In this document: positions 8,785 to 54,626 of the stretch, piece after piece | How positions within the stretch are numbered: the first letter of the stretch is position 1 | How the letters are laid out: the number at the start of each line of letters is the position of its first letter | Assembly (NCBI GenBank): GCA_040220855.1 | Contig: JAVJVZ010000076.1 | Span: 26,220 to 90,219, forward strand | DNA from: Gammaproteobacteria bacterium | GTDB taxonomy: Bacteria > Pseudomonadota > Gammaproteobacteria > Ga0077536 | Reading direction: 5' to 3' | DNA: 64,000 nt | Position numbers and translations under genes: made by a program | Notes under the pieces: model-generated | The model's input: the letters and a program-made list of their open reading frames with translations, nothing else | What the model was told of the DNA's origin: nothing | Databases searched by the model: none

Positions 8785-8848
8785 CAGCGCGCGCAGCGCG
8801 TGCCCATCTCGCGGGTATACTCCTGCGCTCACATGGGGAGGGGCAGGC

Positions 8849-9820
8849 GTGACGCAGGCGATCGTGTTGCACGCACATGGTGGACCGGAGCAGCTCCGCG
8901 CTGCGAGGGTGGAAGTCGGCGCACCGGGCGCGGGCGAAGTGCGCCTGCGCCACACCGGTATCGGCGTCAATTTCGTCGATACCTATTTTCGCCGCGGCCT
9001 CTACCCGGTCGAACTACCCGCCATCATCGGTGACCAGGCCTGCGGCGTGGTGGAGGCGGTCGGGCCCGGCGTGGACGGCCTCGCGGTCGGCGACGCTGTC
9101 GCCTATGCGTCGTGCCCGGGCGCCTATGCCGCCACGCGTATCGCCCCGGCAGCACAGCTGGTTCGCGTACCCGCCGGCGTCGACGCGATGCTGGTTGCAT
9201 CCAGCCTCACGCGCGGCATGACCGCCGAATACCTGCTGTTCCGTCTCCACGCACTCGCGCGCGGGGAGAGCTGCCTGGTCTACGCGGCGGCGGGCGGCAC
9301 CGGCCGCCTGCTCTGCCAATGGGCGCGGCATCTCGGTGCCACCGTCATTGCGGCGGTCGGCGCTGCCAACCGGGTTGCAACCGCGCACGAGGCCGGTGCC
9401 CACCACGTGCTGCTGAACGACGACGCCGACTTCGCCGCGCGCGTGCGCGCGTGGAGCGGCGGGCGCGGTGTCGATGTCGTCTACGACTCGGTCGGCCGCG
9501 ACACCTTCACCCAGTCGCTCGCCTGCCTGCGCCCGCGCGGCCTGATGGTCGCCTACGGCAATGCCTCGGGCGCGCCGGAGCCCTGCGAGGTACTCGCCCT
9601 GGCGCGCCACGGCTCGCTGTTCCTGACGCGTCCGCGCCTGCCCGACTACGTCGCCGATCGCAGCGAGCTGGAACACTGCGCGGGGCGATACTTCGATGCG
9701 CTCGCCGCGGGCGTCGTGCGCCCCAACGCGATTGAACGCTACGCGCTGGCCGACGCGGCGGCGGCACACCTGCACCTCGAGGATCGCGAACGGCTGACCA
9801 CGCCGGTGCTGGTACCCTGA
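8849..9820 (+). CDS. qor: NADPH:quinone oxidoreductase (Qor), zinc-free medium-chain dehydrogenase/reductase (MDR) family
   Basis: 323 aa, VYAAAGGTG Rossmann motif, zeta-crystallin-like. GTG start 5 nt after a GGGGAGGGG RBS. Confidence 0.8.
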   Translation: MTQAIVLHAHGGPEQLRAARVEVGAPGAGEVRLRHTGIGVNFVDTYFRRGLYPVELPAIIGDQACGVVEAVGPGVDGLAVGDAVAYASCPGAYAATRIAPAAQLVRVPAGVDAMLVASSLTRGMTAEYLLFRLHALARGESCLVYAAAGGTGRLLCQWARHLGATVIAAVGAANRVATAHEAGAHHVLLNDDADFAARVRAWSGGRGVDVVYDSVGRDTFTQSLACLRPRGLMVAYGNASGAPEPCEVLALARHGSLFLTRPRLPDYVADRSELEHCAGRYFDALAAGVVRPNAIERYALADAAAAHLHLEDRERLTTPVLVP

Positions 9821-9937: not shown

Positions 9938-11029
9938 ATGAAGCTCAGCTATTTCACGATGCCGTTGCATCCGCCCGGGCGCGATTGGCGCGAGACCCTC
10001 GACGAGGACCGCGCGGCTGTCCTGCTCGCCGACCGCCTCGGCTACCACGAAGCCTTCGTCGGCGAGCACGTCACTGATCGCGCAGAGACCGTGACGTCGT
10101 GCCTGATGTTCCTCGCCAGCCTCGCCTACGAGACGGGAGCCATCCGTCTCGGCAGCGGCACCGTCAACCTGCCGAACAGCCACCCCGCGGCGGTTGCCGC
10201 CCAGGTCGCGATGCTCGACCACATGCTTGCCGGGCGCTTCGTGTTCGGCATCAGCCCGGGCGGGCTGCGTTCCGATGCCGAGGTGTTCGGCAACCTCGAT
10301 CGCGATCGCCGCGCGATGTTCGACGAGGCCATCGAGCAGGTGCTCGCGATCTGGAGTGGCGAGCCGCCCTACGAACTCGACGGCGAGTTCTGGACGGTGA
10401 GCACGCGGCGCACGCTCGATCTTGCGATCGGCCAGGGGGCGATTCTCGGCCCCTACCAGCGCCCGCACCCGCCGATCATGGTCGCCTGCATGTCGCCGTT
10501 CTCGGATTCGGTGGCCAACGCGGCGCAGCGCGGCTGGTCGATCGTGTCGGCCAACTTCCTGCAGCCGGTATGGGTGAAGAGCCATCGCGACAAGCTCGCG
10601 GAGGGCTGGGCGGACGGTGGACATACGCCGAATCCGGCCGACTGGCGCGTCGCGCGCAGCATCTTCGTCGCCGACGACGCGCACACCGCGCGCACTTATG
10701 CGATGGAACCCGATGGCGCGTATGGCAATTACTATCGCAGCCTGATGCACAAGCTCATCGGCAACGGGCGACCCGACCTGTTCAAGACCCGCCGTGACAT
10801 GGCCGACGCCGAGGTCACCCACGATTTCGTCATGCGCTCGCTGGTCATTCACGGCACACCGGCGCAGGTCGCCGAGCAGATCGTCGCACTGCGCGAGACC
10901 GTCGGCGAGTTTGGTACGCTGGTTTATGCTGGTCACGACTGGGTCGATGGCGCCCTCGCGCGGCGTTCGATGGAACTGATGGCGACCGAGGTGATGCCGG
11001 CGGTCAACCGCGCGCTCGGCGAGGCCTGA
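9938..11029 (+). CDS. LLM-class flavin-dependent oxidoreductase
   Basis: 363 aa luciferase-like monooxygenase. GGGAGGGAAGGGAAG RBS then ATG. Confidence 0.8.
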   Translation: MKLSYFTMPLHPPGRDWRETLDEDRAAVLLADRLGYHEAFVGEHVTDRAETVTSCLMFLASLAYETGAIRLGSGTVNLPNSHPAAVAAQVAMLDHMLAGRFVFGISPGGLRSDAEVFGNLDRDRRAMFDEAIEQVLAIWSGEPPYELDGEFWTVSTRRTLDLAIGQGAILGPYQRPHPPIMVACMSPFSDSVANAAQRGWSIVSANFLQPVWVKSHRDKLAEGWADGGHTPNPADWRVARSIFVADDAHTARTYAMEPDGAYGNYYRSLMHKLIGNGRPDLFKTRRDMADAEVTHDFVMRSLVIHGTPAQVAEQIVALRETVGEFGTLVYAGHDWVDGALARRSMELMATEVMPAVNRALGEA

Positions 11030-39350: not shown

Positions 39351-40904
39351 TCAACAAAGGTCGCCCTGGCGCAGGCGAAATCGCTGAATCTTACCGGTCG
39401 CGGTTTTCGGCAGGACATCGATGAACTCGATCCAGCGCGGGTACTTGTAGGGCGCGAGCCGGTTCTTCACGTGTTGCTTGAGGCTGTCGGCGAGCGTATC
39501 GCTGGCGTCGTGGCCGTCCTTGAGGACGACGAAGGCGCGCGGTTTGATCAGCCCGGCTTCGTCGGCGTGGCCGACCACGGCCGCTTCGAGCACCGCGTCG
39601 TGCCCGATCAGGGCAGCTTCGACCTCCGCCGGCGAGACGTAGATGCCGCCCACCTTGAGCATGTCGTCGCTGCGTCCGCAGTAGACGTAGTAGCCATCGT
39701 CGTCCTGGCGGTACTTGTCGCCGGTGCGCGTCCACGTGCCGGCGAAGGTGTGGCGGCTGCGCGCCCGGTTGTTCCAGTACATCGCCGCGGCGGTCGGGCC
39801 GGCCACCTGCAGCTCGCCGATGTCGCCGCTGGCGACAGGCTCGCCCGTATCGTCGACGATGCGCAGCGCGTAGCCGTCGACGGCGCGGCCGGTGGTGCCG
39901 TAGCGCACGTCGCCGGGGTGATTGGACAGGAAGATATGCAGCATCTCGGTCGAACCGATGCCGTCGAGGATGTCGACGCCGAATTGCGCATGCCAGCGCG
40001 CGCCGAGTTCCGCCGGCAGCGCTTCGCCCGCCGAGGTGCATACGCGCAGGGCGAGCGCCTCGCGCGACGGCAGCGCCGGGTGCGCGAGAAGGCCGGCGTA
40101 GAGCGTGGGAACGCCGTAGAAAATGGTCGCGCCGTGTTCCTGCAGGCGCGCGAATACCGCCTCCGGCGTCGGCCGCTCGGCCATCAGCACGGTGGTCGCG
40201 CCGACGCTGAGCGGGAACGACAGCGCATTGCCGAGGCCATAGGCGAAGAACAGCTTGGCGGCGGAGAAGACGACGTCGTCCGCGTTGATGCCGAGGATCG
40301 GGCGCGCATACAGTTCCGCGGTCAGCGCGAGCGAGGCATGCACGTGCACGGTGCCCTTGGGGCGTCCGGTCGAGCCCGACGAGTAGAGCCAGAAGCACGG
40401 CTCGTCGCTGCAGGTCGCGGCAACGCTGTCGTCACCGTCGGCGGCGGCGAGCAGGGCCGCGAGTGCGTCCTCCGAGCCGCCGCTGACGACGACACGCTCG
40501 AGTGTCGGCACGCTCGCTTGGAGGCCTTCGAACTGTGGCGCCAGCGGCGCCGACACCACGGTGACGCGGGCGCGGCTGTCGCTGAGCATGAAGGCGTAAT
40601 CGTCGCGGGTCAGCAGCGTGTTGACGAGCACCGGTACGATTCCGGCGCGGATTGCGCCGAGAAACAGCACCGGTAACGCGAACGTATCGTGCATGGCCAG
40701 CAGCACGCGCTGCTCCGGGGCGATACCGAGGGCACGCCACATCGCCGCGGCACGGCGCACCGCGGCGTCGAGCTCGGCATAGGTGTAACGCCCGTGGTCG
40801 TCGATGTAGGCGAGCTTGTCGCGGTAACCGGCGGCGAGGTTGCGCTCGACGAGGTCGGCCGCGGCGTTGTACGACCGCGGCGCCACGTCCAGGCCGGCGC
40901 CCAT
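39351..40904 (-). CDS. bclA: benzoate-CoA ligase family (AMP-forming)
   Basis: 517 aa; AMP-binding motifs YSSGSTGRPKG, GTTGRAVDGY and the C-terminal PKTATGKIQR lysine motif. Start ATG overlaps the ferredoxin stop (TGATG). Confidence 0.85.
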   Translation of the reverse strand: MGAGLDVAPRSYNAAADLVERNLAAGYRDKLAYIDDHGRYTYAELDAAVRRAAAMWRALGIAPEQRVLLAMHDTFALPVLFLGAIRAGIVPVLVNTLLTRDDYAFMLSDSRARVTVVSAPLAPQFEGLQASVPTLERVVVSGGSEDALAALLAAADGDDSVAATCSDEPCFWLYSSGSTGRPKGTVHVHASLALTAELYARPILGINADDVVFSAAKLFFAYGLGNALSFPLSVGATTVLMAERPTPEAVFARLQEHGATIFYGVPTLYAGLLAHPALPSREALALRVCTSAGEALPAELGARWHAQFGVDILDGIGSTEMLHIFLSNHPGDVRYGTTGRAVDGYALRIVDDTGEPVASGDIGELQVAGPTAAAMYWNNRARSRHTFAGTWTRTGDKYRQDDDGYYVYCGRSDDMLKVGGIYVSPAEVEAALIGHDAVLEAAVVGHADEAGLIKPRAFVVLKDGHDASDTLADSLKQHVKNRLAPYKYPRWIEFIDVLPKTATGKIQRFRLRQGDLC

Positions 40905-41223
40905 CAGAACTCGGGCGCGAGCGTCAGGCGGATGCCATCCAGCTCGTCGACGTACGGCACCTGGCAGGCGAGGCGGGACCTCTCCTCGAAATGCCCGGAG
41001 TCTTCCACCATCACCTGCTCGTCGGTCGCACGCGGCGCGAGTTTGCCGGTCCATTCTTCGTCGACGTACACGTGGCAGGTCGAACAGATGCACTGGCCGC
41101 CGCAGATGGCCTCGATGGGCAGCCCGCCGTCACGCAGGATCTCCATCAGCGTGTAGCCCGCGCGCGCTTCGAGCCGGTGCTCTGCGCCGTCGCGGTCGGT
41201 TGCGATCACGGTACCCATCGAGC

Positions 41224-41227
<4 letters not shown>
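40904..41227 (-). CDS. adrenodoxin/putidaredoxin-type [2Fe-2S] ferredoxin
   Basis: 107 aa; CGGQCICSTCH (C-x5-C-x2-C) plus a distal LACQV cysteine. GTG start overlaps the boxB stop (GTGA). Confidence 0.8.
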
Positions 41228-42642
<1,415 letters not shown>

Positions 42643-42660
42643 GTCGGGTTACCTCCGCCG

Positions 42661-44346
42661 CTACACGCGGCGCTTGTCGTATTGCGGGCGCTCGCCGGTG
42701 CCGTAGAGCACCAGTGCGCCCTGCTCGCCCACCGCATTGGGACGCTGGAAGATCCAGTTCTGCCATGCGGACAGGCGCGCGAAGATTTTCGATTCCATCG
42801 TCTCCGGGCCGGGGAAGCGGATGTTCGCTTCCATGCCGGTCAGCGCGTCGGGCGAGAAGCCCGCGCGAGCCTCGACCAGGATGCGCAGCTCGTCGTCCCA
42901 GTCGATGTCGTCGGGGATGAAGGTGACCAGGCCGAGCTGCTCGGCACGCGCGGCGTCGAGCGGCTCGGCACCGAGCGCGGACAGACGCGCGATGGCGTCG
43001 GGGTCGTCGAGGCTGCGTGCCTCGAGGCGCGTAAGACCGTTGACCATGCGCAGCCAGCCGAAATTCGCCGGCGACAGTACGACGCTCGCTGGGGGGCGTT
43101 CGTCGTCCTCGAAGCGGCCGTCGAGCATGAAGCTCTGGTCAGCGGCGAGCACCAGCTCGAGCAGCGTGCCGGCGAAGCATGAGCCGGGTTCGACGGCGGC
43201 GATCAGCGAGCGCGCGGAGACGTCGACGCGCTTGAGCACGCGCTGCGCGTAGAGTCGCACCTCGCGCACGAACCAGTCCTCGGCATGCGCGTCGAGCAGG
43301 GCATCGGCGGCGAGTACGCGGCCGGCATCTCCTGCGCTCTTGAACATCCACGTGCCAACGGCTTCCTCGTTGAAGCGCAGGTGCAGGATGGCATCATCGA
43401 GCGCACGCATCACGGCGAGTGGCCAGAAGGCCGCGCCAGCGGCGTGGATACCGGCGAGATCGCCCGGCAGCTCGTCGCTGGGTCCATGCACGACGAAGGT
43501 GGCGAGGCGTTGTGCGCGGTCGATGTGCACGTCGAGATGCGCGTAGCGCAGCGTGTCGCCCTGAACCTGCCGTGACAGCGGCGTGAGTGCGATTCCGCTG
43601 GTCGACGCCGGCCGATCGCTTCCGGCGGCGAGTTCGGCTGCGCGTGCACGCACGCTGTCCTCGAAAGCGGAGGCCGGCACGACGTGGTCGACCAGGCGCC
43701 AGTCGAGCGCTCGTTTGCCACGCACGCCCTCCTCGACGGTGCAGAAGAAGTCTGCGCGGTCGCGCCGCACGTGGCGCTTGTCGACCAGGCGCGTGAGGCC
43801 GCCCGTGCCGGGTAGCACCGCGAGCAATGGCAGCTCGGGCAGCGACACCGCGCTGGCACCGTCGTCGGCGAGGATAATCTCGTCGCAGGCGAGGGCAAGC
43901 TCGTAGCCGCCGCCGGCACAGGAGCCTCTGACCGCGGCGAGGTAGACCTGGTGCGAGTGATTCGTCGCATCTTCGATGCCGTTGCGCGTTTCGTTGGTGA
44001 ACTTGCAGAAGTTCACCTTGTGCGCATGCGTCGCGCGACCGAGCATCTTGATGTTGGCGCCGGCGCAGAACACGCGATCGTGCTTCGAATGGACGACCAC
44101 GCAGCCGACCTCCGGATGCTCGAAGCGCAGGCGCTGCACGGCGTCGTAGAGTTCGATGTCGACACCGAGATCGTAGGAATTGAGCTTCAGCTCGTAGCCA
44201 TCGCCGATGGTCGCCTGCTCGTCGACGGCGAGGCCGAGCCAGGCGACGTTGCCGTCGATCTCGAGCTGCCAGTGATGGTAGTGCTCCGGCGCGGTGCGGA
44301 AATCGATCACGCGGGCGGGACTCGTCGCGGGGGCGGCGGTGGGCAT
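42661..44346 (-). CDS. boxC: 2,3-epoxybenzoyl-CoA dihydrolase / benzoyl-CoA-dihydrodiol lyase
   Basis: 561 aa, two crotonase-like domains (…FCAGANIKMLG…, …SCAGGGYELALACD…). Start at MPTAAPAT…; the ORF extends upstream through low-complexity codons. Confidence 0.8.
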   Translation of the reverse strand: MPTAAPATSPARVIDFRTAPEHYHHWQLEIDGNVAWLGLAVDEQATIGDGYELKLNSYDLGVDIELYDAVQRLRFEHPEVGCVVVHSKHDRVFCAGANIKMLGRATHAHKVNFCKFTNETRNGIEDATNHSHQVYLAAVRGSCAGGGYELALACDEIILADDGASAVSLPELPLLAVLPGTGGLTRLVDKRHVRRDRADFFCTVEEGVRGKRALDWRLVDHVVPASAFEDSVRARAAELAAGSDRPASTSGIALTPLSRQVQGDTLRYAHLDVHIDRAQRLATFVVHGPSDELPGDLAGIHAAGAAFWPLAVMRALDDAILHLRFNEEAVGTWMFKSAGDAGRVLAADALLDAHAEDWFVREVRLYAQRVLKRVDVSARSLIAAVEPGSCFAGTLLELVLAADQSFMLDGRFEDDERPPASVVLSPANFGWLRMVNGLTRLEARSLDDPDAIARLSALGAEPLDAARAEQLGLVTFIPDDIDWDDELRILVEARAGFSPDALTGMEANIRFPGPETMESKIFARLSAWQNWIFQRPNAVGEQGALVLYGTGERPQYDKRRV

Positions 44347-44356
44347 CGGGTGCTCC

Positions 44357-45250
44357 TCAGTGGGCGGTGATGAGCTCGCGCACGGGCGGCAGTTCGAGCA
44401 GCGCCGTGAGCGCCTGCTCGACACCGTTGGCGGAGGTATCGATGGTGTAGTCGGCGCGGCCGTAGAGGCTCGCGCGCTCGTCGAGGATACGGCGCAGGTC
44501 GGCCATCGCGTTGCGGTGATCGGCCATCGGACGGTAATCGCCCTGCGCGATCACGCGCTCCATGTGCTCGCGCGGCGCGGCTTTCAACCAGACGGTACAG
44601 CACGACGCGAGCAGGAAATCGAAGGTGCGTGGCTCCGATACCAGGCTGCCGCCGCAGGCGATCACGGCATGCTCGAAGCGATCCAGCGAGGCAGCCAGCG
44701 CGGCGCGTTCGTGACGCCGGTAGGCGGTCTGCCCACCGCGCGCGAGAATCTCGCTCACCGCCATGCCGGCGTTGCGCTCGGTTTCCTGCACCAGTTCGAC
44801 GAACGGCACGCCCAGCCGCTTGGCGAGCGCCGCACCGAGGGTACTCTTGCCGGCGCCGCGCAGGCCCACCAGCGCGATGTGACGGGGAACGGGTGAGGGT
44901 CGCTCGCGAGTCGAGGCGAGCAGCGTGGCTAGGCGCGTCAGCTCGTCTTCGCCGGCGCCGCGCAGGCGCTCGCGCAGCAGCAGGTACTCGACGCTCTGCT
45001 CGACGCGCGCATCGACGAGATCGTCGAGCGCCACGTGCATGGCGGCAGCGATCGCGCGCAACACCAGTATCGAGGCGTTGCCCTTCCCCGCCTCGAGCTG
45101 GGCAAGGTAGCGTTCCGAGACGCCGGACGCGGCAGCAAGGATGCGCCGTGACATGCCGCGCCGCGCGCGCACGCGGCGCACGCGCGCGCCGAGCTGGGCC
45201 AGGTAGTGGCCACTCTCGCTGGCTGGGTCGGCGGACGCAGGGACACTCAT
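44357..45250 (-). CDS. boxR: BoxR/BzdR-type regulator (XRE HTH + shikimate-kinase-like domain)
   Basis: N-terminal XRE HTH (GMSRRILAAASGVSERYLAQLE), C-terminal P-loop GLRGAGKSTLG and shikimate-kinase fold. 10 nt upstream of boxC. Confidence 0.8.
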   Translation of the reverse strand: MSVPASADPASESGHYLAQLGARVRRVRARRGMSRRILAAASGVSERYLAQLEAGKGNASILVLRAIAAAMHVALDDLVDARVEQSVEYLLLRERLRGAGEDELTRLATLLASTRERPSPVPRHIALVGLRGAGKSTLGAALAKRLGVPFVELVQETERNAGMAVSEILARGGQTAYRRHERAALAASLDRFEHAVIACGGSLVSEPRTFDFLLASCCTVWLKAAPREHMERVIAQGDYRPMADHRNAMADLRRILDERASLYGRADYTIDTSANGVEQALTALLELPPVRELITAH

Positions 45251-45412: not shown

Positions 45413-46840
45413 ATGGGCGAAGAAATCGCGACGACCACCTTCTGCGCGGCGGACTTCGAGCGTTTCGCTGCACGCCTCGACGACGAGACGGCCGCGCTGG
45501 CGGCGCTGTTCGAGGCCGGTACGCTGTCCGACAGCGGTTACACCTGGGGCTTCGAACTCGAGGCCTGGCTGCTCGACCACGGGCTGCACCCGACGCCGGT
45601 CAATGCCGCGCTGCTGGATGCCCTCGGGCGCGACGATGTCGTCCCGGAGCTGTCGCGCTTCAACGTCGAGCTCAATACCGCGGTACGCGATTTCGCCCCG
45701 CACACCTTCAGCGCCGCCGAGCGTGATCTCACCACGCAGTGGTCGGCGTGCAACGCGGTCGCACACGGGCTCGATGCCAACATGGTTGCCATCGGCTCCC
45801 TGCCGACCATTCGCGACGCCGATCTCTCGATCGACAACATCTCGCCACTCAAGCGCTATTACGCCCTCAACCACGAGCTGCTCGCGGCCAACCGCGGGCG
45901 CCCCCTGCAGATCCGTATCGAAGGGCGCGAGCGGCTGACGCTGAGCCATGCCGACGTCATGCTCGAAGCGGCGGCGACGTCCTTCCAGGTGCATCTGAAG
46001 ACCCCGTGGTCGCTCGCTCACCGCTACTACAACGCTTCGCTCGCGCTGTCGGCGCCAGTGCTCGCGGCGGCGGCCAATGCACCGTTGCTGTTCGACCGGC
46101 TGCTATGGGAAGAGACCCGCATACCGCTTTTCGAGCAGGCCATCGCCGGCGTCGCCGGGCCCGCCGCAGCGGTGCCACGGGTGACCTTCGGCAGCGGCTA
46201 CCTGGATCACACGCTGTTCGAATGCTTTGCGGAGAATCGCCGCGCGTTCCCGGTGCTGCTGCCGATCGGTTTCGACGAGTCGCCCGCCGCTTTGCGCCAC
46301 CTGCGCCTGCACAACGGCACCATCTGGCGCTGGAATCGCCCGCTGGTCGGCTTCGACGGCGACGGCGTCCACGTGCGCCTCGAGCACCGTGCGCTACCGG
46401 CCGGGCCGAGCCTGGCCGACATGATCGCCAATGCCGCACTCTATCTCGGCGCCACCCACGAATGGGTCATGCGCGACTGCGTGGCACGGGTCACCGCGAG
46501 CGATGCGCGGGCGAATTTCTACGCTGCCGCCCGCCACGGTCTCGACGCCACGCTGCGCCGCGACGGCGGAACCTGTGCGGCCCGCGCGTGGCTCCTCGAC
46601 GAAATCGTCGACGACGCTGACGCGGGTCTCGCGCGCCTCGGTATCGCCGCGGAGGAGCGTGCGCGCTACCTCGGCATCGTGCGTGCGCGTGTCGCCAGCG
46701 GGCAGACCGGCGCGGCCTGGCAGCGCGCCTGCTACCTCGCGCAGGGCCGCGATGCCTACGCGCTGATGGCGGCTTATTGCGAACTGCAGCGCAGTGGGGC
46801 GCCGGTGCACGAATGGCCGCGGCCGGGGGCCGCGCGATGA
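45413..46840 (+). CDS. glutamate-cysteine ligase family 2 (GCS2/YbdK-like) carboxylate-amine ligase
   Basis: 475 aa; YbdK-like ATP-dependent ligase. Family call from overall architecture and size; no single diagnostic motif verified. Confidence 0.7.
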   Translation: MGEEIATTTFCAADFERFAARLDDETAALAALFEAGTLSDSGYTWGFELEAWLLDHGLHPTPVNAALLDALGRDDVVPELSRFNVELNTAVRDFAPHTFSAAERDLTTQWSACNAVAHGLDANMVAIGSLPTIRDADLSIDNISPLKRYYALNHELLAANRGRPLQIRIEGRERLTLSHADVMLEAAATSFQVHLKTPWSLAHRYYNASLALSAPVLAAAANAPLLFDRLLWEETRIPLFEQAIAGVAGPAAAVPRVTFGSGYLDHTLFECFAENRRAFPVLLPIGFDESPAALRHLRLHNGTIWRWNRPLVGFDGDGVHVRLEHRALPAGPSLADMIANAALYLGATHEWVMRDCVARVTASDARANFYAAARHGLDATLRRDGGTCAARAWLLDEIVDDADAGLARLGIAAEERARYLGIVRARVASGQTGAAWQRACYLAQGRDAYALMAAYCELQRSGAPVHEWPRPGAAR

Positions 46841-46874
46841 TGGCGCCCGTCAGCTGCCGCCCGGGCGGTCCGCC

Positions 46875-47912
46875 ATGAGCGGGCTGCGCGTCTTCGACCA
46901 CCTGCCGCACGGCCTGCTAGCGGCACGGCCGCAGGACCTCGCACGGCTGCTCGGCGGCCCGACGCTATTCGACCTGCCCGCGCGTGCGCACGCGGCCGCC
47001 GCGGCGCCCCTGTTCCTCTCCACGCTTCTGCACGGCAACGAGGACACCGGCTTCGAGGCCGCCAAGCGGGTGCTCGCCCGGCACGGGGTGGACGGCCTGC
47101 CGCGACCGCTGTTGCTCTTTCTCGGCAATGTCGAGGCGGCGGCGGCGCAGCGGCGCACGCTGCCCGGTCAGCACGATTTCAACCGCGTGTGGCCGGGCTC
47201 GCCATTGCCGGAGTCATGCGAGCGGGCGCTCATCGCCGAGGTGTTCGACTACGTCCGCACCCGTGCGCCTTTCGCGAGCATCGACATCCACAACAATACG
47301 GGGCTCAATCCGCACTACGGTTGCATCAACCGTCTCGACGAACGCTGGTTCCACCTCGCCCGCCTGTTCAGCCGTACCGTGGTCTATTTCACCGAGCCGA
47401 CCGGGGTCCAGTCCGCAGCCATGGCGACGCTGTGTCCGGCGGTGACGGTCGAGTGCGGCAAGGCGGGTGTCGCCGCCAATATCGTTCATGCCGAGGCGTT
47501 CATCGAGGCCTGCCTGCACCTTGCCGAGCTGCCCCACGCCCCGTTACCCGCGCACGACCTCGATCTCATGCGCACGGGTTGGATCGTGCGCGTGCCGGCC
47601 GGCGCGAGCCTGTCGTTCGACGACAGCCCGGCCGACTTCATGTTCCGCCGCGATCTCGATCACCTGAATTTCAGCGAGTTGCCGACCGGCACCTCGTTCG
47701 GCCGGCTCGGCGGCGCGCACGGCGAGCGCCTGGCGGTAGTCGACGGCGGCGGTGGTGCGATCGACGCGGTATTCGACTACCGCGACGGGTGCATCCGCCT
47801 GGCGCGGCCGGCAGTGCCCGCGATGCTGACCTTGGACGCCGAGGCGGTGCGCCTGGACTGCCTGTGTTACCTCATGCAGCGCATCGACCGCCGCGGGCAG
47901 GCGCTGCCGTGA
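46875..47912 (+). CDS. succinylglutamate desuccinylase / aspartoacylase (AstE/AspA) family zinc deacylase
   Basis: 345 aa; …LLHGNEDTGFEA… and …IDIHNNTG… His/Glu zinc ligands characteristic of the M14-like AstE/AspA fold. Confidence 0.65.
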   Translation: MSGLRVFDHLPHGLLAARPQDLARLLGGPTLFDLPARAHAAAAAPLFLSTLLHGNEDTGFEAAKRVLARHGVDGLPRPLLLFLGNVEAAAAQRRTLPGQHDFNRVWPGSPLPESCERALIAEVFDYVRTRAPFASIDIHNNTGLNPHYGCINRLDERWFHLARLFSRTVVYFTEPTGVQSAAMATLCPAVTVECGKAGVAANIVHAEAFIEACLHLAELPHAPLPAHDLDLMRTGWIVRVPAGASLSFDDSPADFMFRRDLDHLNFSELPTGTSFGRLGGAHGERLAVVDGGGGAIDAVFDYRDGCIRLARPAVPAMLTLDAEAVRLDCLCYLMQRIDRRGQALP

Positions 47913-48685
47913 GCCTGCTCGCCGCCGACGAGCCGGCACCCTTCGTGGTCGAGCGCGCCGCCGGCACGGCGCCGTTCTTTCTGACCTGCGACCATGCCGG
48001 CACGCGCATCCCGCGTGCCCTCGGCGACCTCGGTCTCGCGCCGGGCGCCCTCGAGACGCACGTCGGCTGGGACATCGGTGCGCTCGACGTCGCGCGGGAC
48101 CTCGCTGCCCGCCTCGATGCCACGCTCGTCTGGCAGCCCTACTCGCGTCTCGTGGTCGATTGCAACCGTCCGGTGTCGAGTCGTCAGCTGGTCCCCGCGC
48201 GCTCCGAGCGGACCGCGATTCCGGGGAATCTCCGCGTCGATGCCGCCGCGCGCGCGCAGCGCCTCGCTGCCATTCATGCGCCCTACCATGCCGCCATCAC
48301 GCGCCTGCTCGATGCGCGTGCCGCGCGTGGCCAGGCCAGCGTCTACGTTGCCGTGCACAGCTTTACGCCCGTCTACGACGGCCAGCCGCGCCCGTGGCAG
48401 CTGGCGGTGCTCTACGGCGCGGATGCGCGCCTCGCACGGCCGCTCATCGACCTCGCGCGGGCGGACGCTGCGCTCGTCGTCGGTGACAACGAACCCTACC
48501 GTATCGACGAGGAAGATTACGGCGTCCCGGTGCACGCGCTGGGACGTGGCCTGCCCAATGCGCTGCTGGAGCTTCGCCAGGACGAGCTCGTGGCGCCCGC
48601 TGCTGCCGCACGCTGGTCGGAACGCCTCGCCAGCCTGCTCGTCGCGGCGCTGGAAACGCTGCAAAACAGCGCCGATCCGGCCTGA
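47909..48685 (+). CDS. N-formylglutamate amidohydrolase (FGase) family protein
   Basis: 258 aa; …FFLTCDHAGTRIP…VAVHSFTP… matches the FGase/HutG-like family. GTG start overlaps the preceding stop (GTGA). Confidence 0.7.
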   Translation: MSLLAADEPAPFVVERAAGTAPFFLTCDHAGTRIPRALGDLGLAPGALETHVGWDIGALDVARDLAARLDATLVWQPYSRLVVDCNRPVSSRQLVPARSERTAIPGNLRVDAAARAQRLAAIHAPYHAAITRLLDARAARGQASVYVAVHSFTPVYDGQPRPWQLAVLYGADARLARPLIDLARADAALVVGDNEPYRIDEEDYGVPVHALGRGLPNALLELRQDELVAPAAAARWSERLASLLVAALETLQNSADPA

Positions 48686-48899
48686 ATTGCGCGGCCAAAA
48701 ATAACACTTGCATTCTGCGCCGAGATCTATACCCTGCGCGTCCTCCGTGAGTGACTGGCGGCGTAATTCAAGACCGAAGGAGGTGAACCAAGCCGTTTCA
48801 TAGCCTCGGCCGGGTTCGGTATCAAGCCCGAACCGACTGGGCGCAGAGCCTTGAACGGCACTGCGATTTCAAAGACCTTGCTGGGTGGGGGTAATACCG

Positions 48900-49298
48900 A
48901 TGTCTGAACATCAACCTATCTGGGGGCAACACCTCATCATCGACCTCGCGGGCTGCCCGCGGGACCGTCTCACCGACGCCGACCACCTGCGCTCGTGGGT
49001 CAAGGATCTCGTCGACACCATCAAGATGAAAGCGTACGGCGAGCCTCAGCTCGAGCACTTCGCCACGCATTCGTATGATGCGGCCGGTTTCACTCTGCTA
49101 CAGCTGATAGAGACCTCGAACATCTGCGCGCACTTCGCGGAGAACCTGGGGCAGGTCTATATCGACATCTTCTCCTGCAAGTCCTTCGACAACGACCTGG
49201 CGGTGGCCTGCTGCAGGAAGTACTTCGAACCCGAAGTCGTTGAACTGCACCTGATCGAACGCGGTAAGTTCCAAGCCTCGCTGCAAAAGGCGAGTTGA
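48900..49298 (+). CDS. S-adenosylmethionine decarboxylase-related small pyruvoyl-enzyme proenzyme (SpeD class 1, paralog 1)
   Basis: 132 aa; …GQHLIIDLAGC…FTLLQLIETSNICAHF… corresponds to the HLxxDLxGC…LAESHISIHTWPE family, with ETS in place of ESH at the cleavage motif. Confidence 0.65.
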   Translation: MSEHQPIWGQHLIIDLAGCPRDRLTDADHLRSWVKDLVDTIKMKAYGEPQLEHFATHSYDAAGFTLLQLIETSNICAHFAENLGQVYIDIFSCKSFDNDLAVACCRKYFEPEVVELHLIERGKFQASLQKAS

Positions 49299-49301
49299 GG
49301 G

Positions 49302-50168
49302 ATGGCCGGTCAGTTCGTCGAAAGCCTGTACACGGGACAGGCTTTCCAGGGCTTTTTCTACGACAAGCTGCTGTTCGAGGCTGACACCGAATACCAGTCG
49401 ATCCGGATCTACGACGTGCCCTGGCTGGGGCGCGTCCTGGTCCTCGACGGTATCGTGCAGACCACCGAGGCCGACGAGTTCATCTACCACGAGATGCTGG
49501 CGCACGTACCGCTGATGTCGGTGGCGGCGCCGCAGCGCGTGATGATCGTCGGCGGCGGTGACGGCGGCACGTTGCGGGAAGTGCTCAAGCACCCGGTCGA
49601 GAAGGTCGACCTCGTCGAAATCGACGAGGTCGTGATCTCGAGCGCGCGCGAGTTCCTGCCGACGCTCAACGACGACGGGCGGGCGTTCGATGATCCGCGG
49701 GTCGAAATCGTGGTGCGGGATGCCTTTCAATACATGAAGGAGCATACCGGCGAGTACGATGCGATCCTGATCGATTCGACCGATCCGGTCGGCATGGCCG
49801 AGGCGTTGTACTCCGACGAGTTCTACCGCCTGTGTCGGGATGCCCTGTCGCCGCAAGGCGCGCTCAGCGCCCAGGACGGCGTGGTGTTCTTCCAGCGCGA
49901 CGAGGCGGCGCGCACGGTCGCCGCGCTGCGGCGCCTCGGTCTCAGCGCGGGTGCCTACATTGCGGCCGTGCCGACCTATTATGGGGGCTCGATGACCTTC
50001 GGCGTCGCTGGACGCGATGCCGCCGTGCTGACGCCCGATGTCGATACCCTGGCGGCACGCTTTGCTGCGCTGACGGGCACCACCCGGCACTACTCGCCGG
50101 CCGTGCACCAGGCGAGTTTCGTGCTGCCACGCTGGATCGAGGAAGCGGTGGAGGGGAAAAAACAATGA
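49302..50168 (+). CDS. speE: spermidine synthase (polyamine aminopropyltransferase)
   Basis: 288 aa; VLVLDG…, GGGDGG and DSTDP motifs. Confidence 0.85.
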   Translation: MAGQFVESLYTGQAFQGFFYDKLLFEADTEYQSIRIYDVPWLGRVLVLDGIVQTTEADEFIYHEMLAHVPLMSVAAPQRVMIVGGGDGGTLREVLKHPVEKVDLVEIDEVVISSAREFLPTLNDDGRAFDDPRVEIVVRDAFQYMKEHTGEYDAILIDSTDPVGMAEALYSDEFYRLCRDALSPQGALSAQDGVVFFQRDEAARTVAALRRLGLSAGAYIAAVPTYYGGSMTFGVAGRDAAVLTPDVDTLAARFAALTGTTRHYSPAVHQASFVLPRWIEEAVEGKKQ

Positions 50169-50575
50169 AAGAACTGCCCGATCACTTCAAGAAGGATGCC
50201 CGTGGCAATGCCTATGCGGGCGATCACCTGCTGGTCGAACTGTGGGACGCCTGCAACCTGACCGATGCCGCCCACATCGAGCAGACGCTCGACCAGGCGG
50301 CCCATGCGGCCGGGGCGACGGTGCTGCACGCCTATTACCACCCCTTCGGTGAAGGCCAGGGCGTGAGTGGCGTCACGGTGCTGGCGGAGAGCCACATCAG
50401 CATCCACACCTGGCCGGAGCGCGGCTACGCTGCCATCGACGTCTTCATGTGCGGTGACTGCGATCCGAATCTCACCGTTCCCATCCTCACCGAGGCGTTC
50501 CGTCCGGGGCGCATCGAGACCCGCCTGTTCAAGCGCGGCTGCGAGCCGGCCAGCGCGATGCAGAGCGTGGCCTGA
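50165..50575 (+). CDS. speD: S-adenosylmethionine decarboxylase proenzyme (class 1b)
   Basis: 136 aa; GDHLLVELWDC…VLAESHISIHTWPERGYAAIDVFMCG, a canonical ES-cleavage pyruvoyl motif. ATGA overlap with the speE stop. Confidence 0.8.
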   Translation: MKELPDHFKKDARGNAYAGDHLLVELWDACNLTDAAHIEQTLDQAAHAAGATVLHAYYHPFGEGQGVSGVTVLAESHISIHTWPERGYAAIDVFMCGDCDPNLTVPILTEAFRPGRIETRLFKRGCEPASAMQSVA

Positions 50576-50730: not shown

Positions 50731-51669
50731 GTGACCGCAATCCCCGTCAAACTGAATCCGCCCGTCCGCCGCGGCGACCCGCGCAAGCAGCGCGTCGATG
50801 CCGGGCGGCTGCAGCAGCGCCTGCGCCGACTGGCCGGCAAGGCGATCGGCGACTACGCCATGATCGGTGCCGGCGATCGCGTCATGGTCTGCCTGTCGGG
50901 CGGCAAGGACTCCTACACGCTGCTCGACCTGCTGCTCAGCCTGCGCGAGCGTGCGCCAGTCGATTTCGAACTCGTCGCGGTGCATCTCGACCAGAAACAA
51001 CCGGGCTACCCGCCGGCGGTGATGCGCGACTACCTGGCCGGTCTCGGCATCGAGCACCATGTCATCGAGCAGGATACCTACTCGGTGGTCAAGCGCGTGG
51101 TCCCCGAGGGACGCACGATGTGCGGACTTTGCTCACGCCTGCGCCGTGGCATCCTGTATCGCTTCGCCACCGAGCATGGCATCACCCGTATCGCGCTCGG
51201 ACACCACCGCGACGACATCGTCGAGACGGTGTTCCTCAACATGTTCTTCGGCTCGAAACTGAAGGGCATGCCGCCGAAACTGCTCAGCGACGATGGCCGC
51301 CACGTCGTCATCCGCCCGCTCGCCTACTGCCGCGAGACTGACATTGCGCGCTATGCCGAGTCGCGCGGTTTCCCGATCATCCCGTGCAACCTGTGTGGCA
51401 GCCAGGACGGTCTGCAACGGGCCCGCGTGAAAGCGATGCTCGCCGAGTGGGAGCGCGAGCAGCCGGGGCGGGTGGAGAACGTGTTCCGCGCGTTGCAGAA
51501 CGTGGTGCCGTCACATCTCGCCGACACCGGGCTGTTCGATTTCGCGGCGCTCGGCGACGCTGGCGCTGCGCAGCGTCATGCGGCACGCGACTGGCTGGTC
51601 GGTGATGGCGGCTTGTCGGCGCCGGAGGGTGCGGACGGCATCGATGACGAGGACGGCGACCGCCGCTGA
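50731..51669 (+). CDS. ttcA: tRNA 2-thiocytidine(32) synthetase
   Basis: Collinear with E. coli TtcA (…[12 protein letters not shown]…[10 protein letters not shown]…IPCNLCGSQ…). GTG start. Confidence 0.85.
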
Positions 51670-51745: not shown

Positions 51746-53377
51746 TCAGGCGATGGTGAAGCCGGCGTAGCCGCTCGCCTTGACGTCGTCGCAGATCTGA
51801 CGGTAGTTGCCGACGCCGCCGATGTAGGACAGCAGCCGCCGCGGCTTGCCCTCGATGTTGGCGCCGGTGTACCAGGAGTTGGTGCGCATCAGCAGCGTCG
51901 CGTTGGCGATCTCGTCGTGGTGCGAGACCCACTCATCCTGCTTTTCCACCGTGGGTTCGATCGAACTGGCATCCCGATCGCGCAGATAGGCAATGCAGTC
52001 GGTGACCCAGTCGACCTGCTGCTGCAGGCAGGTGGTCATGTTGCAGAAGGCGGTCGACGGCGCGAGCGGCCCGGCCACGGTGAACAGGTTGGGGAAACCG
52101 CTGACCTGCAGGCCGAGTGTCGAGCGGATGTCCTTGTGCCACTCCTCGGACAGCGACAGGCCGTCGCGACCGCGGATGTTCATCTGCGTGAGCGAACCGG
52201 TGCCGGCGTCGAAGCCGGTCGCCAGGATCACCACGTCGAGCGCGTACTCCTCGCCAGAGGCGAGGCGGATGCCGGTCTCCGTGAAGCACTCGATGGGGTT
52301 GTCCTTGACCTCGACCAACTCGACGTTGTCGCGGTTGTAGGCGTCGTAGTAGCCGTTCTCGAGCGGTACGCGGTAGGTGCCGAAGGTGTAGTGATAGGGC
52401 ACCAGCTTCTCGGCCACTTCCGGGTCGTCGATGCGCGCGCGGATCTTCTCGCGCACCCATTCGGATACCTCGGCACCGACCTTCTCGTCGGTGAGCAGTT
52501 CGGCGAAGCTGCCGACCCAGAAGCTCAGCGAACCGTCGGCCCAGATCTCCTCGAGCTTGGCGAGGCGCTGCTCGGCGGTGAGGTCGTACCAAGACACCGG
52601 CTGCACGTCGAAGTCGAAGCCGGCAAAGGTGTGGTTGACGCGCTCCTCGAGCTCGTGGGCGTGGGCCTTGTACTCGGCGCGATCGGCGTCGCTGAACTTG
52701 GGGTTGCGCATCGGCACGGCGTACTGCGGGGTGCGCTGGAAGACCTTCAGTTCGCCGACTTCTGCGGCGATGGTCTGGATGACCTGGATGCCGGTCGCGC
52801 CGGTGCCGACGACGCCGACCCGCTTGCCCTTCATGTCGATACCTTCGCGCGGGTAGCGCGCGGTATGGGCGATGATGCCCTTGAACTTCTCGTGTCCGGG
52901 GAAGGGCGGCACCTTGGGCGCGGAAAGCATGCCGGTGCAGCTGACCAGGAACTGTGTCGTGAAAGAGTCACCCTGGTCGGTACGTACCACCCAGTGCGCG
53001 TTGGCCTGGTCCCACTCGGCGCCGGTGACACGGGTGCCGAAGCGGATGTCCTTGCGCAGGTCGAGCTTGTCGGCGACGAAATTCAGGTAGCGCTCGGTCT
53101 CGGGCTGGCCCGGAAAGCGTTCGCTCCAGTTCCATTCCCGGATCAGCTCCTCCGAGAACCAGTACTGGTAGATGTAGGACTGCGAGTCGACGCGTGCGCC
53201 CGGATAGCAGTTCCAGTACCAGGTACCGCCGACGTCGGTGCCGGCGTCGATCGATTGCACCTTGAGGCCCATCTCGCGCAGGCGGTGCAGCTGGTAGAGA
53301 CCGGCCACGCCGGCGCCCACCACGATCGCATCAAAATCCGTTCCGGCGCGGGCGCCGTTGCCATTCGTTCCAGTCAT
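51746..53377 (-). CDS. type I Baeyer-Villiger / flavin-containing monooxygenase (cyclohexanone-monooxygenase family)
   Basis: 543 aa; two Rossmann motifs (VVGAGVAG, VGVVGTGATG) and a BVMO-like fingerprint FKGIIAHTARYP. Confidence 0.8.
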   Translation of the reverse strand: MTGTNGNGARAGTDFDAIVVGAGVAGLYQLHRLREMGLKVQSIDAGTDVGGTWYWNCYPGARVDSQSYIYQYWFSEELIREWNWSERFPGQPETERYLNFVADKLDLRKDIRFGTRVTGAEWDQANAHWVVRTDQGDSFTTQFLVSCTGMLSAPKVPPFPGHEKFKGIIAHTARYPREGIDMKGKRVGVVGTGATGIQVIQTIAAEVGELKVFQRTPQYAVPMRNPKFSDADRAEYKAHAHELEERVNHTFAGFDFDVQPVSWYDLTAEQRLAKLEEIWADGSLSFWVGSFAELLTDEKVGAEVSEWVREKIRARIDDPEVAEKLVPYHYTFGTYRVPLENGYYDAYNRDNVELVEVKDNPIECFTETGIRLASGEEYALDVVILATGFDAGTGSLTQMNIRGRDGLSLSEEWHKDIRSTLGLQVSGFPNLFTVAGPLAPSTAFCNMTTCLQQQVDWVTDCIAYLRDRDASSIEPTVEKQDEWVSHHDEIANATLLMRTNSWYTGANIEGKPRRLLSYIGGVGNYRQICDDVKASGYAGFTIA

Positions 53378-53738
53378 TCGCTTGAACCTCCACTCGTGGA
53401 ATCGGGAATCTCGTGTTCGGGGGACCCGGCGGACGCGGCGGCGCGTTGCCGTTCGCGGGTCCGGACGCGCGCCGCGCGGGCGGTGATGCCGGTGGCAGTG
53501 TGCATTCGCCGTCCGGCGCCGTCTTGCACGTCACGCGCGCGCGTTTTGCACGATCGCGGCAGTTCCGCGCTCGGCCGCGGCCGCCGGATCCTGCCGGGCG
53601 CCGGCACCGCGCGGCAAGGCACGGGACGCTGCAATCGCCGATCACTTGACCTGGCTCAGCGAATTGCCAAGCGCCGGCGCTGTCGCCTAAGCTGCCGGAC
53701 CCGGGCTCGCGCCCGGCCTGCCACGAGGACCGTGCCCC

Positions 53739-54626
53739 ATGTCAGACCTGATCACGCCGGAAGAGTTGCCGCGCTGGGTGCCGGGCGAGATCACGGCCCG
53801 CAGCGACGGGCTCGGCTGGCGCGGCGTGACCCTGCGCGGCTACCGCTATCGCGGCCAGGACGTCTACATCCCGCCGATGCGCGATTATATGGTGGTTTGC
53901 TACCGGCAGGGAGCCACCCCGATGGAGCGGCGCTTCGACGGTTCCTGGACGCAGACGCGCTGCGCTCCCGGCAGCATCTCGCTGCTGACCCGCGCACAGC
54001 GCTCGGACTGGAACTGGTCGCAGAACGTCGAAGTCTGTCACGTATACCTCAGCGGCGAACTGCTCGCCCGCCTCGCCAGCGAGGCGCTCGAGCGCAGCAT
54101 TGCCGATGTCCACCTGCGCGACCTGCTCAACATCGACGACCCGGTGATCACCGCTACTGTCGACGCCATTCGCGCCGAGGCCTCCCAGCAGGCGGTCGGT
54201 GGCGCGCTCTACGTCGACGCGCTGGGCACCCAGCTCGGCCTGCACCTGCTGCGGCGCTATTCGTCGGTGACCTTCCGCGAACGCTCCGACAACGGCGCAC
54301 TCGCTGCCGCCCAGCGGAAGCGCGTGGTCGATTACATCGAGGCCGAGCTCTCCCGGCCGCTCGATCTCGAGCAGCTCGCCGCGGTGACCGGTCTCGGCGT
54401 GTGCAGCTTCACGCGGCGTTTCCGCAAGAGTTTCGGCTGTGCGCCCTATGCCTATGTCATCGAACGCCGACTGCAGCGCGCGCGGCTGCTGATCGAGGCC
54501 GGCGAACTGCCGCTCAAGCAGGTCGCGCCGGCCTGTGGTTTCACCGACCAGGCGCACATGACGCGGCTGTTCCGCAGCCGTCTCGGCGTTACCCCCGGGG
54601 CCTTGCGGCGCACATCCGGGCCCTGA
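53739..54626 (+). CDS. AraC family transcriptional regulator
   Basis: C-terminal AraC HTH (…LEQLAAVTGLGVCSFTRRFRKSFGCAPYAYVIERRL…). Divergent from the BVMO gene. Confidence 0.8.
   Translation: MSDLITPEELPRWVPGEITARSDGLGWRGVTLRGYRYRGQDVYIPPMRDYMVVCYRQGATPMERRFDGSWTQTRCAPGSISLLTRAQRSDWNWSQNVEVCHVYLSGELLARLASEALERSIADVHLRDLLNIDDPVITATVDAIRAEASQQAVGGALYVDALGTQLGLHLLRRYSSVTFRERSDNGALAAAQRKRVVDYIEAELSRPLDLEQLAAVTGLGVCSFTRRFRKSFGCAPYAYVIERRLQRARLLIEAGELPLKQVAPACGFTDQAHMTRLFRSRLGVTPGALRRTSGP

Follow-up and report, generated by a model that had tools for sequence, protein, structure and literature searches.

A ligase-hydrolase pair, an FGase gene and a SpeDC-SpeE-SpeD spermidine operon as probably separable modules of a gammaproteobacterial locus

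Do genes for forming and cleaving amides that stand directly upstream of spermidine genes belong to one polyamine pathway, or do they merely share a neighbourhood? The question is raised by six genes on the plus strand at positions 45413-50575 of a 64,000-nucleotide stretch of contig JAVJVZ010000076.1 from a Gammaproteobacteria bacterium (hereafter the window, ~69% GC), which encode an ATP-dependent ligase, an AstE/AspA-family zinc amidohydrolase (AstE-like), an amidohydrolase of the N-formylglutamate amidohydrolase (FGase) family, a homolog of S-adenosylmethionine decarboxylase (AdoMetDC), an aminopropyltransferase (SpeE) and a second AdoMetDC homolog (SpeD). An earlier note on this DNA had joined the first three to the polyamine genes as a single module for conjugating and de-conjugating amines. 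Here, comparison with related loci leads us to read the locus, with a probability of about 0.7, as three modules of separable function that have come to be stacked in one lineage, in a variable slot between a boxR-like regulator gene and ttcA. Module A consists of the ligase and the AstE-like hydrolase, module B is represented in the window by its FGase, and module C is the spermidine operon, in which the first AdoMetDC homolog is termed SpeDC for reasons given below. The ligase, AstE-like and FGase genes would then be mostly neighbours by history rather than demonstrable partners.

The distribution of the modules carries this reading. A scan centred on the ligase covered 80 genome loci (designated L, with a number) whose ligases are 43-79% identical to that of the window, and in 76 of them FGase, speD and speE are all missing from the 7-10 kb around it. 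FGase, speDC, speE, speD and ttcA were found near the ligase only in L001-L004, where the ligases are 68-79% identical to that of the window. The neighbourhood comparison that the earlier note had itself proposed as a check therefore comes out largely against it. Within the slot itself, the modules occur in five combinations: module A, FGase and module C in the window, L001, L002, L004 and L170; FGase and module C in L081, L083 and L178, which read boxR (minus strand), FGase, speDC, speE, speD, ttcA with neither ligase nor AstE-like gene; modules B and C in L085, L088 and L172-L177; module B only in L166, where boxC (minus strand) is followed by the complete module B (a glutamine synthetase (GS)-like gene, a PNPOx-like gene and FGase) and ttcA, with no spermidine genes; and all three in L003, where ligase, AstE-like, GS-like, PNPOx, FGase, speDC, speE, speD and ttcA stand in tandem. 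The FGase homologs of L081, L083 and L178 are 58-62% identical to that of the window. A second scan, centred on SpeDC and covering 80 metagenome loci, showed the speDC-speE-speD trio conserved down to 58% identity (L089-L102), while FGase adjoins speDC only at SpeDC identities of 83% or more, that is, within the lineage whose slot lies between the box genes and ttcA (the box-ttcA lineage). Among the more distant loci that extend far enough, namely L089, L092, L093, L095, L096, L099 and L102, no FGase gene was found within 6 kb upstream of speDC, and the gene contexts of distant singleton SpeDC homologs were uninformative. In L165 the complete module B lies in an unrelated context, and its 4.74-Mb contig carries it at 2.74 Mb, 1.1 Mb away from the speDC-speE-speD genes at 1.62 Mb, while the FGase homologs of L084 and L167 lie in other catabolic contexts. 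Outside the box-ttcA lineage, modules A, B and C each occur alone, and this independent distribution makes three separable modules the simplest account. Recent horizontal transfer of one module was also considered and set aside; the GC content at third codon positions is uniformly 0.79-0.90, and composition gives no signal.

Module C further bears on the question, as it appears to be complete in itself. AdoMetDC homologs have repeatedly become pyruvoyl arginine decarboxylases (SpeDA) or ornithine decarboxylases (SpeDC) (PMC10407285), and the SpeDC enzymes are marked by a diagnostic set of Gln, Thr, Phe and Tyr (PMC10407285, Fig. 8). In the window's speD-like protein, which includes the stretch GFTLLQLIETSNICAHFAENLGQVYIDIFSC, all four are present (Q68, T72, F79 and Y87), and the processing and catalytic residues S73, H78 and C93 are kept (ETSNICAHF...DIFSC). 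Across the retrieved loci, 87 of the 89 family matches carry Gln, Thr, Phe or Leu, and Tyr at these positions. The protein falls below the AdoMetDC equivalog model TIGR03330 (46.5 bits against a cutoff of 75.65) and lacks the AdoMetDC-specific proline, which the downstream SpeD carries within AESHISIHTWPE (TWPE motif). The SpeDC domains of SpeD-SpeDC fusions from Omnitrophica and D. phosphitoxidans, which were assayed with L-ornithine, both share this four-residue motif and read ..QLIETSLVSGHFAN....AYIDIFSC and ..QLIETSLISGHFAN....VYLDVFSC (PMC10407285; letters reconstructed from the garbled Fig. S5). By BLASTP, the window protein is 32% identical to the Omnitrophica domain (E 9e-18), with which it has the motif QLIETS..HF..YIDIFSC in common, and 27% identical to the window's own SpeD. 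The speD-like gene matches PF02675; judged by its diagnostic residues, it is an SpeDC-type pyruvoyl L-ornithine decarboxylase and not an unexplained extra AdoMetDC.

SpeDC would thus convert ornithine to putrescine, SpeD would make decarboxylated AdoMet, and SpeE would transfer the aminopropyl group to yield spermidine. With ornithine decarboxylase, spermidine synthase and AdoMetDC all predicted, the route from ornithine to spermidine would be complete and self-sufficient, with no need of an extra enzyme. Clusters of speDC with speE and a true speD have been described in Atribacteria, Anaerolinea thermophila and Sumerlaeota (PMC10407285), and the window's polyamine cluster is a further example of this type, published in 2023, with the same Gln/Thr/Phe/Tyr AdoMetDC homolog beside speE and a class 1b speD. 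It differs in belonging to a high-GC gammaproteobacterial lineage unlisted in that paper and in having upstream of it a leader of ~160 nt and, within this lineage, an FGase gene. The gene order, in which the earlier note had not recognised a described pathway, is in this part a published one; for the ligase/AstE-like pair and for the GS-PNPOx-FGase trio, our literature search found no description.

Turning to module A, five of the six genes were clearly placed by Pfam and NCBIfam, the ligase being the exception. It gave no Pfam match at E<=10, and GCS2 (PF04107) matched neither it nor its homologs P0004 and P0030. A 54% identical homolog (P0116) does reach GCS2 (27.5 bits against a cutoff of 21), and a precomputed database table assigns PF04107 to many members of the family, which is large (>6,800 homologs). 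A sequence search of the PDB gave no match by phmmer, nor with a 30-sequence profile, and hhalign against E. coli YbdK returned a probability of 5.5%. Because these searches gave nothing or a marginal signal, the ligase was placed by fold search alone. Its AlphaFold model (mean predicted local distance difference test, pLDDT, 83.8; predicted template modelling score, pTM, 0.90) was matched best by Foldseek to the YbdK structures 1R8G and 1TT4 (E 1e-11, target-normalised TM-score 0.78-0.82) and next to plant, yeast and E. coli glutamate-cysteine ligases (GCLs; 2GWC, 3IG5 and 1V4G). Six residues (E48, E50, E86, H194, E324 and R326) never vary across 32 sequences and would correspond to the kind of Glu, His and Arg side chains by which the GS/GCL fold holds metal and ATP. 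The strand bearing the E-x-R motif aligns with VEVR of YbdK in the hhalign comparison (probability 5.5%). Compared with YbdK, the ligase has ~100 additional residues and an identity of 13-17%, and its family is nearly always paired and sometimes fused with an AstE-like hydrolase, which YbdK in its E. coli context is not. The enzyme families named in the earlier note were essentially right, except that "YbdK-type" holds for the ligase only at the level of the modelled fold and not as sequence-family membership. From the model, the protein is predicted to be an ATP-dependent carboxylate-amine ligase of a distinct, very large family.

The fold matches to GCLs raise the possibility that the protein is simply the organism's own GCL, serving glutathione synthesis, with incidental neighbours. 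The NCBI annotation of one homolog as glutamate--cysteine ligase and a weak NCBIfam match (PRK13517, E 0.003) point the same way, but no GCL equivalog model was reached at threshold, the PDB search linked the sequence to neither plant GCL, GshA nor YbdK even with a profile, no gshB-like gene was found among the conserved neighbours, and the protein's family is almost always paired, and in two loci fused, with a zinc hydrolase. We therefore regard this assignment as highly improbable.

The partner of the ligase belongs to the AstE/AspA family. Its family profile matches AstE (1YW4, E 7e-5) with the N-terminal half aligned, and the motifs HGNE, R95, DYNR (N104-R105), DxH140NNTG and E194-C-G (A3 numbering) are invariant in 23 sequences. 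The active site is intact: the zinc ligands (HxxE...H), the catalytic Glu and both carboxylate-binding elements, Arg and Asn-Arg, are retained as in AstE and AspA. The protein lies far below the AstE equivalog models (TIGR03242, 12.6 bits against 305.65; NF003706, 18.9 against 170) and is not an AstE ortholog; it also stands outside any ast or arginine-catabolic context and has a ligase as its partner. In AspA and the M14 carboxypeptidases, Arg and Asn-Arg bind the alpha-carboxylate of the released amino acid. Since this clamp is kept and a polyamine has no alpha-carboxylate, the likely substrate would be an N-acyl or gamma-glutamyl amino acid and not an acyl-polyamine.

In 74 of the 78 evaluable loci of the ligase scan, the AstE-like gene lies directly downstream of the ligase gene, and the gap between them has a median of 25 nt; two of the 80 loci end at the ligase and could not be evaluated, one has a partial AstE-like copy and three have none. 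The two are fused as one open reading frame (ORF) in L051 (8972-11467, 831 aa) and L070 (10001-12463, 820 aa), which come from two gammaproteobacterial metagenome-assembled genomes (MAGs) and have similar junction sequences. This near-obligate adjacency, together with the two fusions, indicates that the ligase and the AstE-like hydrolase act together. The ligase would form an amide, most likely by placing a gamma-glutamyl or other acyl group on an amino acid, the zinc hydrolase would cleave an N-acyl amino acid, and the pair would probably make and turn over, or sequentially process, one small amide metabolite. "Make and remove an amide", as the pairing had been characterised, is a fair description. 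Module A is not specifically tied to polyamines, and Proteobacteria that oxidise sulfur, nitrify or live on methane carry hundreds of its relatives, which makes it a widespread ligase-hydrolase unit.

All-versus-all ORF clustering of the 80 loci revealed no third conserved partner of the pair beyond amgK and murU. Neighbouring lipA, lipB, argA and argE genes, seen in 6-13 loci, were rejected as partners because they look like local synteny. Of 70 loci, 33 have a gene for MurU (NCBIfam, 299 bits against 250) directly upstream of the pair in the same orientation; in 28 of these it stops no more than 200 nt before the ligase gene, gaps of 0-5 nt being frequent, and an AmgK-like kinase gene precedes murU in 23 loci (examples are L025, L032, L036, L041, L046, L049, L061 and L076, upstream of position 10001 or its equivalent). 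This association may be a lead to recycling of N-acetylmuramic acid (MurNAc) and the cell wall, or inherited synteny only. MpaA, a peptide amidase of cell-wall recycling, is an M14-type enzyme, like AstE, and module A might accordingly combine an MpaA-like peptide amidase with a ligase that re-uses a glutamate-containing fragment. Such a role in MurNAc/peptide recycling seems unlikely to us, as only a single broad group of gammaproteobacteria shows the association, which could be inherited synteny there; neither the window nor the beta- and alphaproteobacterial loci have it.

The FGase, in turn, has its conserved partners elsewhere. Its closest structure is the uncharacterised Atu2144 (PDB 2ODF, E 7.5e-49), it scores 44.4 bits against a cutoff of 278.75 with the HutG equivalog TIGR02017, and no hut genes adjoin it, so that it is not a HutG ortholog. 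In L003, L085, L088, L165, L166 and L172-L177, the FGase gene follows genes for a GS-like (PuuA-like) ligase and a PNPOx-like protein with 4-nt stop/start overlaps (L003 12464-15300; L165 3918-6780; L166 3934-6765; L172 3992-6787; L088 2791-5802), the PNPOx-like stop overlapping the FGase start as the AstE-like stop does in the window. The GS-like protein matches Gln-synt_C at ~E 1e-80 and is 70-77% identical across contexts; its best NCBIfam matches are gamma-glutamylputrescine synthetase (237-247 bits, cutoff 650) and type III GS, neither of which comes near its threshold. The middle gene encodes a PNPOx/F420-class protein of ~180 aa. No homolog of the GS-like or PNPOx-like protein was found by tblastn with the L003 proteins in the 64-kb window, and the simplest account of the window's FGase is that it is a leftover of module B, both partners having been lost.

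A FGase-family protein has been predicted to act as a gamma-glutamylglycine amidohydrolase partner of the GS-like GlnA4 (PMC6529630, PMC9397018). By analogy, the trio would be a gamma-glutamylation-type amine pathway in which an amine is ligated and then oxidised or modified before FGase releases the glutamate, and it looks like an undescribed compact pathway of this kind. It resembles the Puu and GlnA4-SCO1615 ethanolamine pathways in that, in relatives of the window, FGase follows a GS-like ligase, and differs from them in its middle gene, which is PNPOx-like and not of PuuB/PuuC type; the window itself lacks the GS-like ligase. Polyamines are one candidate amine for module B, given the PuuA-like best match and the fact that some genomes have it next to module C. 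Because the spermidine operon of sister genomes is directly preceded by a PuuA-like ligase and FGase, the FGase module may be entertained as having a gamma-glutamyl connection with polyamines, although we give this slim odds and do not extend it to the GCS2-type ligase. No literature tying FGase to polyamine biosynthesis genes was found.

The two types of ligase occupy exactly the same position upstream of FGase, which suggests another scenario, namely that the GCS2-fold ligase, with the AstE-like enzyme, took over the role of a lost GS-like ligase with its PNPOx partner. Both the GCS2 and GS folds catalyse ATP-dependent ligation of glutamate to amines, and the corresponding stop/start overlaps with FGase would fit such a non-orthologous displacement. 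However, L003 holds both sets in tandem, L081, L083 and L178 keep FGase with neither set, the ligase and AstE-like genes are self-contained in more than 70 other genomes and fused in two, and a zinc hydrolase is no functional analogue of a PNPOx-type flavoprotein. On balance, we consider displacement very unlikely.

These observations allow the single pathway of the earlier note, in which ligase, AstE-like enzyme and FGase would conjugate and de-conjugate polyamines or a precursor together with the downstream spermidine genes, to be weighed. The shared strand, the 34-nt gap and the GTGA overlap speak for it, as do the preservation of the arrangement in the window, L001, L002, L004 and L170, the presence of a non-orthologous GS-like ligase at the same position in sister genomes (with gamma-glutamylputrescine synthetase as its best match, below cutoff) and the lack of a terminator-like site ahead of speDC. 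Furthermore, a precedent for opposing synthetase and amidase activities on a polyamine conjugate exists in the bifunctional glutathionylspermidine synthetase/amidase (Gss), in which an ATP-dependent amide synthetase (ATP-grasp) is coupled with a hydrolase of opposite type (CHAP). Module A has the same synthetase-plus-hydrolase logic and is sometimes fused as well, but the folds are unrelated and the AstE-like enzyme looks built for an amino-acid leaving group, as its Asn-Arg clamp implies, rather than for a polyamine. Nearly all ligase loci lack FGase and polyamine genes nearby, FGase and the spermidine genes exist without the pair in L081, L083 and L178, both ligases coexist in L003, so that neither replaces the other, and a spermidine route with SpeDC needs nothing further. 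We therefore judge a common pathway improbable; the modules appear separable, and FGase has GS-like and PNPOx-like partners elsewhere.

Several points weigh against the separable-module reading. Every locus in which the modules touch belongs to one syntenic lineage, where shared history and selection for adjacency cannot be fully separated. Within it, either of two glutamate-amine-type ligases, one of GCS2 fold and one of GS fold, stands ahead of FGase-speDC, which might point to a requirement for such an enzyme and not to chance, and the retention of FGase beside speDC after loss of the GS-like and PNPOx genes in at least three sub-lineages suggests that it is still useful there. With the very short gaps and no terminator-like site between FGase and speDC, co-transcription of all six genes is possible. 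Beyond the 64 kb covered, the genome may hold a GS-like partner or canonical ornithine or arginine decarboxylase genes, and the substrates proposed here for the ligase, the AstE-like enzyme and FGase are read from sequence. The pathway as originally posed mostly dissolves, and the interest shifts to its by-products: the ligase, AstE-like and FGase proteins belong to known superfamilies but to uncharacterised subfamilies, and the paired or fused ligase-hydrolase family, the GS-like/PNPOx-like/FGase trio and a conserved leader before the pyruvoyl ornithine decarboxylase operon are useful leads.

This leader lies in the gap between FGase and speDC, where conservation greatly exceeds that of the flanking proteins (in 10 aligned loci, mean column identity is 80% and long blocks do not vary at all). 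The gap starts with a block, TTGCAT followed after 16 nt by TAnnnT, that is kept in all 10 aligned loci. A scan with the sigma-70 consensus did not flag this block, which we regard as a putative promoter of the spermidine operon. Block and leader together span 48708-48899 in the window, 13303-13478 in L001, 13279-13454 in L004, 6862-7036 in L081 and 6830-7006 in L172 and L178. In the structure predicted by RNAalifold, an outer helix pairs 5' CCUCC with the Shine-Dalgarno sequence GGGGG of speDC and encloses three hairpins, and an alternative GGAGG partner is predicted in an internal loop. Compensatory changes, five pairs in all, were found in helices 3 and 4 only of the five helices, and none of 500 shuffles reached the observed count; the remaining helices, including 1 and 2, are invariant, so that covariation is uninformative there. 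The minimum free energy of the leader is not unusual (z-score -0.17). A covariance model gave 19 matches, 13 of them distinct, and found the leader in no more-distant speDC loci, the element being confined to the box-ttcA lineage. Two other identities were rejected, as Rfam 15 contains no match to the leader at E<=1, and the only candidate ATG for a leader peptide reads ATA in the window and L001. The ~160-nt leader is thus a candidate new cis-regulatory RNA of the spermidine operon, with a predicted fold that would sequester the Shine-Dalgarno sequence, and the conserved block and leader show a predicted control region that is module C's own.

A different conserved leader was observed ~190 nt upstream of speDC in the distant operons L089, L090, L092, L094 and L099 (for example, L092 5822-6010), with a TTGCAA box followed by GCGCGCTCCGCAA..CCGGAGGCTTTGTGAGTTGTTC... 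in its sequence. Long leaders would thus seem to be common to speDC-speE-speD operons in general. To our knowledge, no polyamine-responsive riboswitch is established, and the speDC leader would be of real interest if it bound a ligand. One may further speculate that ligases of both folds (GCS2 with the AstE-like enzyme, GS with PNPOx) were recruited upstream of FGase-speDC-speE-speD to form, together with FGase, a gamma-glutamyl conjugation and de-conjugation valve acting on ornithine, putrescine or spermidine, with the leader RNA sensing a metabolite of the polyamine pathway. This is a long shot; if true, the valve would tune flux through the pyruvoyl ornithine decarboxylase pathway to spermidine, which the leader RNA would control further.

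The positions of all features are collected in Table 1. The six same-strand genes and the GTGA overlap at 47909-47912, which joins the AstE-like stop to the FGase start, had been noted before and were verified here, and the gap of about 200 nt between FGase and speDC measures 214 nt. The ligase and AstE-like genes are separated by 34 nt, and an ATGA overlap at 50165-50168 couples the end of speE to the start of speD. The AstE-like gene is called from the ATG at 46875 and not as the longer ORF from 46794, and the true start of the speD-like gene is the conserved ATG at 48900, giving the same protein length as called in its relatives. The ligase is 100% identical to P0001, an NCBI-called protein of a gammaproteobacterial MAG.

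Table 1. Features of the module stack and of its two flanking anchor genes, in window coordinates.
Feature	Position	Strand	Basis
boxR-like regulator (XRE helix-turn-helix (HTH) + shikimate-kinase-like domain), left anchor of variable slot	44357..45250	-	NCBIfam PRK08154 benzoate catabolism regulator, 370 bits (cutoff 204)
Ligase, GCL/YbdK (GCS2) fold, 475 aa, module A gene 1	45413..46840	+	AlphaFold model and Foldseek
AstE/AspA-family (M14-like) zinc amidohydrolase, module A gene 2	46875..47912	+	PF24827, 47.3 bits (cutoff 25)
FGase-family amidohydrolase (Atu2144-like), probable module B remnant	47909..48685	+	PF05013, E 1.5e-43
Putative promoter of spermidine operon: TTGCAT, 16 nt, TACCCT	48708..48735	+	Conserved block
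Conserved ~160-nt speDC leader, candidate cis-regulatory RNA	48741..48899	+	Alignment and covariance model
Predicted SpeDC (speD-like), module C gene 1, 132 aa	48900..49298	+	PF02675, E 7e-23; diagnostic residues
SpeE aminopropyltransferase (spermidine synthase), module C gene 2	49302..50168	+	NF002010, 307.7 bits (cutoff 260); TIGR00417, 278 bits (cutoff 249.55)
SpeD, class 1b AdoMetDC, module C gene 3	50165..50575	+	TIGR03330, 124.3 bits (cutoff 75.65)
ttcA (tRNA 2-thiocytidine synthetase), right anchor of slot	50731..51669	+	NF007972, 454 bits (cutoff 272)

A boxR-like gene also borders the slot in L081, L083, L088, L170 and L172-L178, and ttcA is placed after speD in all relatives except L166, where it directly follows FGase. 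The boxR-like gene of the window belongs to a box-type aerobic benzoyl-CoA cluster on the minus strand (39351-45250), which encodes a benzoate-CoA ligase, a 104-aa Fer2 protein, a BoxB-like protein of the PaaA/PaaC family, a BoxC-like protein of the enoyl-CoA hydratase family and the XRE HTH regulator with its shikimate-kinase-like domain; the small ferredoxin occupies the place where the larger BoxA reductase is expected. In L081 only, a gene for a 215-aa methyltransferase (Methyltransf_23) lies between speD and ttcA (8800-9447). Downstream of ttcA, the window holds at 51746-54626 a flavin monooxygenase-like gene (543 aa, minus strand) and an AraC-type regulator-like gene (295 aa, plus strand), both identified from their translations. 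These two genes separate ttcA from an acyl-CoA ligase gene that directly follows ttcA in relatives, and they are a further sign of gene gain and loss in this neighbourhood.

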